DNA of 61,137 bases, taken from the sequence record KJ909655.1. The stretch is one strand, 5' to 3'. Made by a program: the position numbers. Positions 30,001 to 33,000 of the stretch are shown here, one piece after another. How positions within the stretch are numbered: the stretch's first letter is position 1; the number at the start of each line of letters is the position of its first letter. Source of the DNA: Escherichia Stx1-converting recombinant phage HUN/2013.

Positions 30001-33000
30001 TGTCATAGATACCAGCAAATCCGAAGGCCAGACGGGCACACTGAATCATGGCTTTATGCCGTAACATCCGTTTGGGATGCGACTGCCACGGGCCGGTGAT
30101 TTCTCTGCCTTCGCGGGTTTTGAATGGTTCGCGGCGGCATTCATCCATCCACTCGGTAACGCAGATCGGATGATTACGGTCTTTGCGGTAAATCCGGCAT
30201 GTACAGGATTCATTGTCCTGCTCAAAGTCCATGCCATCAAACTGCTGGTTTTCATTGATGATGCGGGACCAGCCATCAACGCCCACCACCGGAACGATGC
30301 CGTTCTGCTTATCAGGGAAGGCGTAAATTTCTTTCGTCCACGGATTAAGGCCGTACTGGTTGGCGACGATCAACAATGCGATGAACTGCGCATCGCTGGC
30401 ATCACCTTTAAATGCCGTCTGGCGAAGAGTGGTGATCAGTTCCTGTGGGTCGACAGAATCCATGCCGACACGTTCAGCCAGCTTCCCTGCCAGCGTTGCG
30501 AGTGCTGTACTCATCCGCTTTATACCTCTGAATCAATATCAACCTGGTGGTGAGCAATGGTTTCAACCATGTACCGGATGTGTTCTGCCATGCGCTCCTG
30601 AAACTCAACATCGTCATCAAACGCACGGGTAATGGCTTTTTTGCTGGCCCCGTGGCGTTGCAAATGATCGATGCAGAGTGATTCAAACAGGTGCTGGGGC
30701 AGACCTTTTCCCATGTCGTCTGCCAGTTCTGCCTCTTTCTCTTCACGGGCGATCTGCTGGTAGTGACGCGTCCAGCTCTGAGCCTCAAGACGATCCTGAA
30801 TGTAATAAGCGTTCATGGCTGAACTCCTGAAATAGCTGTGAAAATATCGCCCGCGAAATGCCGGGCTGATTAGGAAAACAGGAAAGGGGGTTAGTGAATG
30901 CTTTTGCTTGATCTCAGTTTCAGTATTAATATCCATTTTTTATAAGCGTCGACGGCCTCACGAAACATCTTTTCATCGCCAATAAAAGTGGCGATAGTGA
31001 ATTTAGTCTGGATAGCCATAAGTGTTTGATCCATTTTTTGGGACTCCTGGCTGATTAAGTATGTCGATAAGGCGTTTCCATCCGTCACGTAATTTACGGG
31101 TGATTCGTTCAAGTAAAGATTCGGAAGGGCAGCCAGCAACAGGCCACCCTGCAATGGCATATTGCATGGTGTGCTCCTTATTTATACATAACGAAAAACG
31201 CCTCGAGTGAAGCGTTATTGGTATGCGGTAACGCCGCGCTCAGGCGGCTTTGATAGTCATATCATCTGAATCAAATATTCCTGATGTATCGATATCGGTA
31301 ATTCTTATTCCTTCGCTACCATCCATTGGAGGCCATCCTTCCTGACCATTTCCATCATTCCAGTCGAACTCACACACAACACCATATGCATTTAAGTCGC
31401 TTGAAATTGCTATAAGCAGAGCATGTTGCGCCAGCATGATTAATACAGCATTTAATAAAGAGCCGTGTTTATTGAGTCGGTATTCAGAGTCTGACCAGAA
31501 ATTATTAATCTGGTGAAGTTTTTCCTCTGTCATTACGTCATGGTCGATTTCAATTTCTATTGATGCTTTCCAGTCGTAATCAATGATGTATTTTTTGATG
31601 TTTGACATCTGTTCATATCCTCACAGATAAAAAATCGCCCTCACATTGGAGGGCAAAGAAGATTTCCAATAATCAGAACAAGTCGGCTCCTGTTTAGTTA
31701 CGAGCGACATTGCTCCGTGTATTCACTCGTTGGAATGAATACACAGTGCTGTGTTTATTCTGTTGTTTATGCCAAAAATAAAGGCCACCATCAGGCAGCC
31801 TTGTTGTAAATGTTGCAGGTATCAAGTAAGTAATTAGATGGAGCGCCATAAATTATGAATTCATCGTTTGTCGGGTCCATCTCCATCTCTTGTCCTATTG
31901 CCATTCTTGCGTCAGTGTCGTCAGCGGCGAAGCATAAAACAGCCCACGCACCCATTGTTTTAAAAAGAACTGCAATTGGCTGTGGTTTTACTGAATTTGC
32001 GTTAGCGCGAAAATCACAAATCGCACTTTCATGAAATTCCATATATCACCTCAAATAAGTGGTTTGCTGCCTAATTTCATTTTCTGGCGACCAACACAAG
32101 TCATCTTGCTGTCAGTTGTTTGGATTTACGGTAGCCTGCCGCGTAAAGAGCTACATTTGGAAGACAAGTTGAGCCTTCATATTTTCTGGTCAACGTTGTC
32201 AGTGTTATTACTTCTGCTCTCATTGCTGGTTTGCGTTTGCATTGTAAGACCACTCGTGATGGGGTTGGCCTGTGTAGTTTGTCGGAGCTAATCGCCTCCT
32301 GACTTTGCAGGTTTGCGCGACGAGCTCTACGGCGAGAAGCTGCGGTGCCTTTAAATTCTGTTTTTCTGGACATAGATTCCTCCCGAATAAACTTTGGCGA
32401 TGCAATCTCGAAGCTCCTCCTGAGACGGTTGCTTCGGCATTGCATCCCACAGCTTATGTGGTTGGGTGATCTGGCTTTTCAGCCACGTAGTCGAGAGTCG
32501 ACGTTGTTTAAAGAGCCTGCCAGTCTGTTCCATTTGGCTTCCAGCGTCCTGCTGATGGTTAAATAGTACGATATGTACTTCACTTGGTCAATACAATTTG
32601 TTCTAAAACGGGGCGTTTTTTTTACAACGCTTTGTATTTAATAGTATTGTTTTTTAGCGTGGGTGTATTGCCTCGGCGATGTAAGGAGAGATCAGAATTG
32701 CGTTGTTTAGTGAGTTGTATCTATTTATTTTCCAATAAATACAATTGGTTATGTGTTTTTTTGGGCGAGAGGAAAAGAAAACCCGGCATGGAGGCCGGGT
32801 TGATGATTAGCGGTGTGGCCTTGAGCGATAATGCTCACACACATGTTCAAGATTTCCATGCCTTATCCGTTCATAGGCATTCACATGAACTTCTCGATCG
32901 AATTGGTCATTCAAATTGTATGTAGACATCTGTGTTTTCTCATATTGGCGGCAGCCCTACAACCGCTTGAAAAAATGTACCAGACGCGCTAAGGTTACAT

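Follow-up and report, generated by a model that had tools for sequence, protein, structure and literature searches.

Which gene occupies the interval between the antiterminator gene N and ea10 in the leftward early operon of Escherichia Stx1-converting recombinant phage HUN/2013 (KJ909655.1; Stx, Shiga toxin), and what could its product do? In phage lambda this interval carries sieB, orf28 and ral, the first an exclusion gene and the last an anti-restriction gene. A first-pass annotation of the 61,137-nucleotide (nt) stretch (hereafter the window), made from the sequence alone, had placed there a single open reading frame (ORF) for an unknown acidic protein of 83 amino acids (aa), without similarity to Ral or SieB, and had proposed it as a candidate anti-defence or exclusion factor. 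The ORF (31791..32042, minus strand), supported by ORF calling, annotation identity and substitution rates, does lie between ea10 and N. Here we show that it is a protein gene standing in place of ral in an exchangeable cassette, and we weigh what the protein might be for.

A protein gene in a cassette exchanged with ral

The ORF comprises 83 codons and starts with an ATG at 32042..32040 (−). Its length alone was not probative, since 6.5 kb contained 85 ORFs of 30 aa or more, and the gene was judged real because of its Shine-Dalgarno site, its pattern of synonymous and non-synonymous change, its homologs in five genera and its match to phrog_2471. The Shine-Dalgarno sequence GAGGTGAT, read directly from the DNA, covers 8 nt (32045..32052, −), its last base being separated from the ATG by 2 nt, and was judged a near-ideal ribosome-binding site; the context ACTTAT(TT)(A)GAGGT(G/T)A stood upstream of every homolog, regardless of the N gene that preceded it. 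Pairwise comparison with homologs from Salmonella, Citrobacter, Klebsiella and Enterobacter gave ratios of non-synonymous to synonymous substitution (dN/dS) of 0.06–0.24 (dN 0.11–0.21), with synonymous sites saturated (dS 1.4 to >2) and synonymous differences scattered along all 83 codons. The phrog_2471 profile was matched from end to end (E = 1.4e-61, residues 1–83 against positions 1–83 of 83). The ORF is thus a genuine, translated and selectively maintained protein gene.

Full-length homologs with 70–99% identity were present in phages and prophages of E. coli, Salmonella, Citrobacter, Klebsiella and Enterobacter, and in the homolog searches they were confined to enterobacterial lambdoid (pro)phages. 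The ORF occurred in 56 phage records (Stx podoviruses, siphoviruses of the HK106/HK633/mEp234 type and one P22-like Salmonella phage) and in 399 of 5426 complete E. coli genomes (~7%), including many Stx2 phages of O157:H7. The 900 bases around it were 100% identical to Stx-converting O157:H7 phages, among them VT2-Sakai/Sp5, Stx2 II and the PA series. Describing the gene as unknown was right in that no function could be assigned to it, but it is already annotated, as H0090 in VT2-Sakai, ECs1180 (ECs_1180) in the O157 Sakai chromosome, ORF21 of Sp5, mEp234_034 and, in a published screen discussed below, orf60. An overlapping 51-aa ORF (31694..31849) has been added in some database records; it had no family match in Pfam, NCBIfam or PADLOC.

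The gene ends inside a terminator. A terminator scan placed an intrinsic terminator at 31771..31802 (−), consisting of a 9-bp hairpin (31802..31781) followed by TATTTTTGG and with a fold energy of −15.1 kcal/mol. Its 5′ arm encodes the C-terminal K-A-A (AAG GCT GCC) and its loop contains the stop codon. A G+C-rich hairpin and T-run stood at this position in every homolog, the stop codon falling within either the loop or the 5′ arm, and the homologous stems displayed compensatory changes (GGCTGCC/GGTGGCC, GGCTGCC/GGCGGCC, GGCCGTC/GGCGGCC and GGCCG/CGGCC). With its own strong ribosome-binding site, its ORF and an intrinsic terminator containing the stop codon, the 83-aa gene is a self-contained cassette. 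This resembles the organisation of phage morons, which consist of promoter, gene and terminator inserted between core genes: the cassette is compact, has its own ribosome-binding site, is immediately followed by its own terminator and moves as one piece between unrelated lambdoid phages. As for a promoter of its own, a consensus scan of the interval from N to the ORF found none, so that the gene would depend on the leftward early promoter PL, although its RNA is abundant in Hfq crosslinks from uninduced cells (see below).

Lambda has the same sequence over the 3′ end of ral and the ral–ea10 spacer as the window has over the last four codons of the ORF (N-K-A-A), its stop codon, the hairpin and ~180 bases beyond. 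Because these 3′ codons and the terminator are common to both genes, the 83-aa ORF stands in for ral in particular, rather than for sieB, in a hypervariable accessory slot. Other phages fill this slot differently. Phage ev017, which has the same N and ea10, carries sieB and ral between them; 933W and HK97 have the same 58-nt spacing after N followed by a different, 156-aa gene (L0079 and gp45, respectively); and the slot of phage 434 holds a 289-aa gene with a Nun-like tail. The flanks were present in 349 phage records, against 56 for the ORF, and in 1368 E. coli genomes, against 399. A variable gene between flanks conserved in related phages is how Silas et al. define an accessory region, and this is what we observed for the 83-aa ORF. 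The cassette is exchanged by recombination with ral, HK97 gp45/933W L0079 and other genes at the slot. The positional logic of the first-pass annotation, including its account of the lambda slot, is sound and was already recognised in the literature.

On its 5′ side the cassette is bounded by the 58-nt spacer running from the N stop codon to the ORF start (32043..32100, −; read from the sequence), a conserved flank present in 1368 of the 5426 complete E. coli genomes. The spacer translates as a stretch ending in TCVGRQKMKLGSKPLI and a stop codon, which we take to resemble the C-terminus of an N protein of the phage 21/933W type, and it may be a relic of recombination between N genes. The 3′ flank is the structured intergenic region between the ORF and ea10 (31609..31790, −), delimited by its conservation and its RNA folding (z-score −5.2). 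It contains two terminators (the second at 31656..31635) along with a perfect 12-bp hairpin, forms a much more stable fold than shuffled sequence does, and is 95–99% identical in lambda (as the ral–ea10 spacer), 434, HK97, HK022, HK620 and Salmonella phages, with differing flanking genes. Presumably this is the tL2 terminator cluster of lambda.

Across E. coli, Citrobacter, Klebsiella and Enterobacter prophages the ORF was usually located 8–58 nt after N, and the upstream N genes belonged to several unrelated families (N_peptide, N36 and one unclassified). Its downstream neighbours varied, none being of known function, and no partner gene was conserved nearby at the homolog loci examined. In three E. 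coli prophages (L018 5660..7471 and the equivalent stretches of L019 and L020), tandem N genes, lambda-type N36 followed by the N_peptide type, enclose a 59-aa truncated copy of the ORF, and a 23-aa Ral fragment lies further on; this arrangement records repeated recombination at the slot. At a further locus (L011 3723..4595) the ORF sits between an N_peptide gene upstream and a 98-aa PF26859 (Phage_N_antitermin) gene downstream.

Relatives, composition and predicted fold

Searches of Pfam, NCBIfam and PADLOC with the 83-aa protein returned no family match (Pfam and PADLOC at E ≤ 1). A word-indexed search and an exhaustive HMMER profile search of 1.84 billion representative proteins recovered only two real clusters at 50% identity, both belonging to the protein's own family, and no distant relatives. 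Two further candidates (P0021 and P0022) were rejected as long repeat proteins in which many weak stretches add up. The absence of similarity to Ral and SieB, claimed from the first reading of the sequence, was borne out. Alignment of the family against lambda Ral with hhalign gave a probability of 0.2, i.e. no relation, and the same comparison with 933W L0079 also revealed none; for SieB (PF14163) there was no Pfam match of any kind, no direct pairwise comparison being made. Judged by its sequence, the protein is not a Ral homolog.

The profile and structure comparisons suggested in the first-pass annotation yielded no assignment. A profile search of the Protein Data Bank (PDB) gave, at best, a short stretch of a cellulose-binding protein (E = 0.09) and the PB1 domain of MEKK2 (E = 0.14), neither of which was significant, and the PB1 match was set aside as no more than a β-grasp hint. 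AlphaFold returned an α/β model from the 11-sequence alignment (predicted local distance difference test score, pLDDT, 52) and an all-β model from the single sequence (pLDDT 57), which agreed only on a β-hairpin at residues 23–38 and a strand near 61–65. A Foldseek comparison of the first model with viral structures was uninformative, with nothing below E = 0.1. In the family alignment, core-like residues were invariant (F3, A7, F11, I23–F27, W33, V35–F38, F62, I64, Y65, L72, C76 and Y79), a pattern that suggests a folded core, and a polar loop, I49-G-Q-E52 ... D56-x-T-N59, was strictly conserved.

The description of the protein as acidic holds for the window allele (pI 4.24, net charge −7.4) but not for the family. 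Among the 11 homologs, net charge ranged from −7.4 (window) to −1.4 (P0012) and pI from 4.24 to 5.65. Acidity is not a family trait.

Compared with lambda Ral (PF11058), the protein is encoded in the same PL-operon slot, downstream of N and upstream of the common terminator and ea10; it is of similar size (83 aa versus 66 aa for Ral); its gene ends in the one common module of N-K-A-A codons, stop codon and terminator hairpin; and both genes lie in an accessory region recognised by Silas et al. Sequence similarity is lacking, and whereas Ral is by inspection basic and cysteine-rich, the 83-aa protein is acidic to near-neutral. HK97 gp45/933W L0079 (phrog_1636, 156 aa, function unknown) likewise shares the slot, the 58-nt spacer after N and the downstream intergenic region. 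However, the 83-aa protein is unrelated to it in sequence and about half as long, and gp45/L0079 ends before, not inside, the first terminator module. With SieB the protein has in common the N–ea10 interval of lambda. Unlike the 83-aa ORF, which has no Pfam match, SieB matches PF14163, and sieB lies on the opposite strand to N in lambda and in two of the homolog loci (L003 and L021), where it co-occurs with the 83-aa ORF rather than being replaced by it.

Weighing the possible functions

The minus-strand gene order in the window is cI, ECs1184, H0092, a terminator, OL/PL, nutL, N, the 83-aa ORF, ea10, cIII, kil, gam, bet and exo, i.e. the leftward early (PL) operon of a lambdoid phage. PL (TTGACC-17-TACTAT; 32563..32591, −) was located by promoter scan and by the VT2-Sakai annotation shifted by +22670, and nutL (32477..32517, −) by the same shifted annotation. 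N, directly upstream of the ORF in the same operon, occupies 32101..32373/32445 (−; Pfam N_peptide, E = 2e-32, and VT2-Sakai annotation), and ea10, downstream, occupies 31240..31608 (−; DUF2528). The sole Rfam match was the cIII thermoregulator RF01804 (31122..31180, −; 88.5 bits), which is expected upstream of cIII; there was none at the 83-aa ORF. A terminator scan of the minus strand from PL to 31802 found no terminator-like site.

Because no such site lies between PL and the hairpin of the ORF, N and the ORF would share the first PL transcript, which would be N-independent and stop at the ORF's own terminator. Once N acts, transcription would read through from the ORF into ea10, cIII, kil and gam. 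The product would be a small globular protein with a conserved hydrophobic core and the invariant I-G-Q-E...D-x-T-N loop. In the weakest step of this scheme, it would bind, very soon after infection or induction, a single protein of the host or of a rival phage, acting as a narrow-target accessory factor in host takeover or counter-defence. We hold this reading, an immediate-early, non-Ral-like accessory protein of an exchangeable PL cassette that binds a host or rival-phage target, only tentatively, with a probability of about 0.4. In its favour, N is followed directly by the ORF in most loci read, irrespective of the N family involved. We also count for it the single case of phi330, the only enterohaemorrhagic E. 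coli phage in one study without a recognised anti-restriction-modification gene, which carries the 83-aa ORF.

One published screen included the protein. Silas et al. (bioRxiv 10.1101/2023.04.06.535777; Nat Commun 2025, PMC12373910) synthesised 200 phage genes from accessory regions, treating the ral-containing stretch as one such region, for a screen in wild E. coli strains. UDP0060 (orf60) of their Supplementary File 3 is AFM76313.1 of mEp234, whose sequence is identical to the 83-aa protein of the window. The constructs given by the authors as dropped or faulty were orf88, 36, 52, 94, 25 and 84; orf60 is absent from these and was therefore in the screened pool. Position, exact replacement of ral and membership of an accessory region bear out the positional side of the proposal of an anti-defence or exclusion factor. 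As yet nothing speaks for its functional side, restriction alleviation or exclusion, and some evidence counts against it. Neither version's main text mentions orf60 as a trigger of cell death or as a counter-defence hit, a weak hit or an exclusion hit, the last being UDP79, UDP183, cor and imm. The assay of MG1655 (EcoKI+) against unmodified lambda grown on C990 comes close to the restriction-alleviation test suggested in the first-pass annotation, and with an identical protein; its outcome, as reported in the overview notes, was negative, the genes named being only ardA, ral and ocr (3/3 replicates). Going by those notes, the protein apparently does not alleviate EcoKI restriction, and an anti-defence role against a system outside the Silas panel is possible. 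Elsewhere in that work, orf184, from the same accessory region as ral, is described as triggering the gop-beta-cII abortive-infection system.

Two further studies concern the gene in Sp5 and in the Sakai strain. Mondal et al. 2016 (PMC5155283) obtained 43 marker-free in-frame Sp5 deletions in a K-12(Sp5) lysogen and failed only for ORF21/ECs1180 and ORF23/ECs1184, both of which they proposed to be needed for stable lysogeny. The step at which these deletions failed is not stated, and the ORF21 primers are not in the supplement. Read against the sequence, the design, which keeps 9 nt at each ORF end, would cut the terminator stem from 9 to 6 pairs. A technical failure is plausible: both targets flank PL–N, and the cloned flanks may have been toxic. 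ECs1184 (Sp5 ORF23) corresponds to window 33103..33624 (−) and encodes a 173-aa protein (phrog_2602, of no known function) between cI and PL, a position that we take to be occupied by rexAB in lambda and by stk in 933W.

In uninduced Sakai cells, Tree et al. 2014 (PMC4104026, Table S1A) ranked ECs1180 22nd among coding sequences (CDSs) in Hfq crosslinking, with sense reads only, at CDS-level counts of 38,000–138,000 in 4/5 samples and 5,489 in the fifth. Their top-100 CDS list contains neither N nor ea10 nor cIII, no EcOnc small RNA (sRNA) is listed at the ECs1180 position, and the signal is not discussed in the paper. It could stem from immediate-early transcripts of spontaneously induced cells that end in the Hfq-bound U-rich terminator, reflect expression in the lysogen or derive from a small RNA embedded here. 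The supplements of RNase E CLASH (crosslinking, ligation and sequencing of hybrids) list ECs1181 (N) and not ECs1180. The prophage sRNAs Pas and HnrS were rejected as a source here, both lying in late regions. One Hfq-bound sRNA of Tree et al., EcOnc20 (Sakai 1255628–1255753, minus), maps upstream of PL at window ~32700..32970 (−), near the small ORF H0092 and a terminator at 32801..32780, a placement that depends on the Sakai genome version. In the RNase E CLASH tables, which come from the same group, coordinates are shifted by 142 bases relative to NC_002695.2.

Several of these observations weigh against the reading of an immediate-early binding protein. The failed deletion of ECs1180 (PMC5155283) and its Hfq-bound sense RNA in uninduced cells (PMC4104026) suggest a function during lysogeny and not during lytic growth. 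In the screen of Silas et al., a pool of 195 genes including orf60 was challenged in ~20 E. coli hosts with T-phages, P1 and lambda, and orf60 is reported neither for counter-defence nor for cell death or exclusion; nor do the overview notes name it for EcoKI. Across the Pfam, NCBIfam, PADLOC, HMMER and PDB profile searches, no homology or fold backed any binding function, and the two AlphaFold models are unreliable and contradict each other in secondary structure. Synteny is also not uniform. The cassette of a Citrobacter locus (L010) comes after a terminator, with no upstream N gene called, and in the P22-like Salmonella phage and an E. coli prophage (L003 and L021) an intact sieB on the opposite strand separates N, or an N remnant, from the 83-aa ORF.

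The lysogen data invite the explanation that the protein, made at a low level, restrains a toxic or inducing factor such as N-driven kil, its loss killing or inducing the lysogen. The stable-lysogeny need suggested by Mondal et al. and the abundance of ECs1180 RNA relative to N and ea10 in uninduced Hfq crosslinks (PMC4104026) speak for such an antidote. We nevertheless consider it unlikely, since phages with the same flanks and another slot gene (933W and ev017) are viable, truncated natural alleles occur in prophages that otherwise look intact, no conserved partner gene nearby and no promoter between N and the ORF were found, and the suicide-plasmid inserts used for the deletion may have carried unrepressed PL–N, with kil on the other flank. 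In a broader form, ECs1180 would be expressed in the lysogen and needed for its survival or stability, either as an antidote-like protein or as a protein combined with an Hfq-bound RNA locus, restraining leaky toxicity from the PL operon. This would explain both the failed deletion and the high uninduced Hfq occupancy, and we regard it as distinctly unlikely. Alternatively, possibly in addition to the protein, the function may lie in the RNA, the 3′ end of the ORF with its terminator, or the A-rich spacer that precedes the ribosome-binding site, working as a regulatory RNA that binds Hfq or as a place where sRNAs exert control. A hairpin and U-run overlap the end of the CDS, and a promoter-like site inside the ORF (TGGACC-16-CATAAT; 31852..31879, −), ~70 nt before the terminator, makes a short RNA conceivable in principle. 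The gene cpxP, for example, gives rise to a 3′-derived sRNA. Genes such as cpxP stand near ECs1180 in the list of Hfq CRAC (crosslinking and analysis of cDNA) targets (PMC4104026). However, the promoter-like site was not conserved in the Salmonella or Citrobacter homologs, synonymous changes extended across the whole ORF including its 3′ third without a sign of extra nucleotide-level constraint, Rfam had no match and Tree et al. no EcOnc sRNA here, and the terminator module is common to other prophages, so that CRAC reads may multi-map. An RNA-level function therefore appears improbable.

The remaining explanations start from the position of the gene. Its place directly after several unrelated N families, with a spacer of 8–58 nt in four genera, could reflect a product that tunes antitermination or the stability of N, e.g. 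via Lon or Nus factors. Adjacency to N is, however, explained by recombination at conserved junctions: unrelated genes (ral and gp45) occupy the same position with the same flanks, and the Citrobacter locus without a called N and the two loci with an intervening sieB depart from the pattern. We find this quite improbable. Superinfection exclusion or another prophage-encoded defence, as a functional analog of sieB, would fit a slot that holds sieB in lambda and the presence of ECs1180 RNA in lysogen cultures (PMC4104026), but the ORF coexists with intact sieB at those same two loci, showed no promoter of its own in the scan and no PADLOC match, contains a hydrophobic stretch that is borderline in the window allele only, and is not named among the exclusion hits of the screen; this makes such a role highly improbable. 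Lowest in our estimation, and remote, is Ral-like alleviation of type I restriction or DNA mimicry of the kind performed by Ocr and ArdA. The slot and 3′ junction shared with ral, and a small, early product that is acidic in the window allele, suggest it. Against this stand the lack of homology to Ral, Ocr or ArdA, a net charge that is not conserved in the family and, within the overview notes of the MG1655 assay, the naming of Ral, Ocr and ArdA but not of the 83-aa protein. The protein is probably not a DNA mimic.

Meaning for toxin-converting phages

The 83-aa gene is an ordinary orphan accessory gene of the PL operon, which one screen has already covered with no phenotype reported. Its protein, the first product made alongside N, is likely to act right at the onset of infection or induction of a toxin-converting phage. 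Blocking a host defence would make it a further member of the counter-defence repertoire encoded in the ral accessory region. Taken as real, the failed deletion would mean that the gene influences how stable the Stx prophage is, a matter that bears on toxin release, and should a need for it in the lysogen prove true, the slot of ral would house lysogeny-control genes as well as anti-restriction genes.

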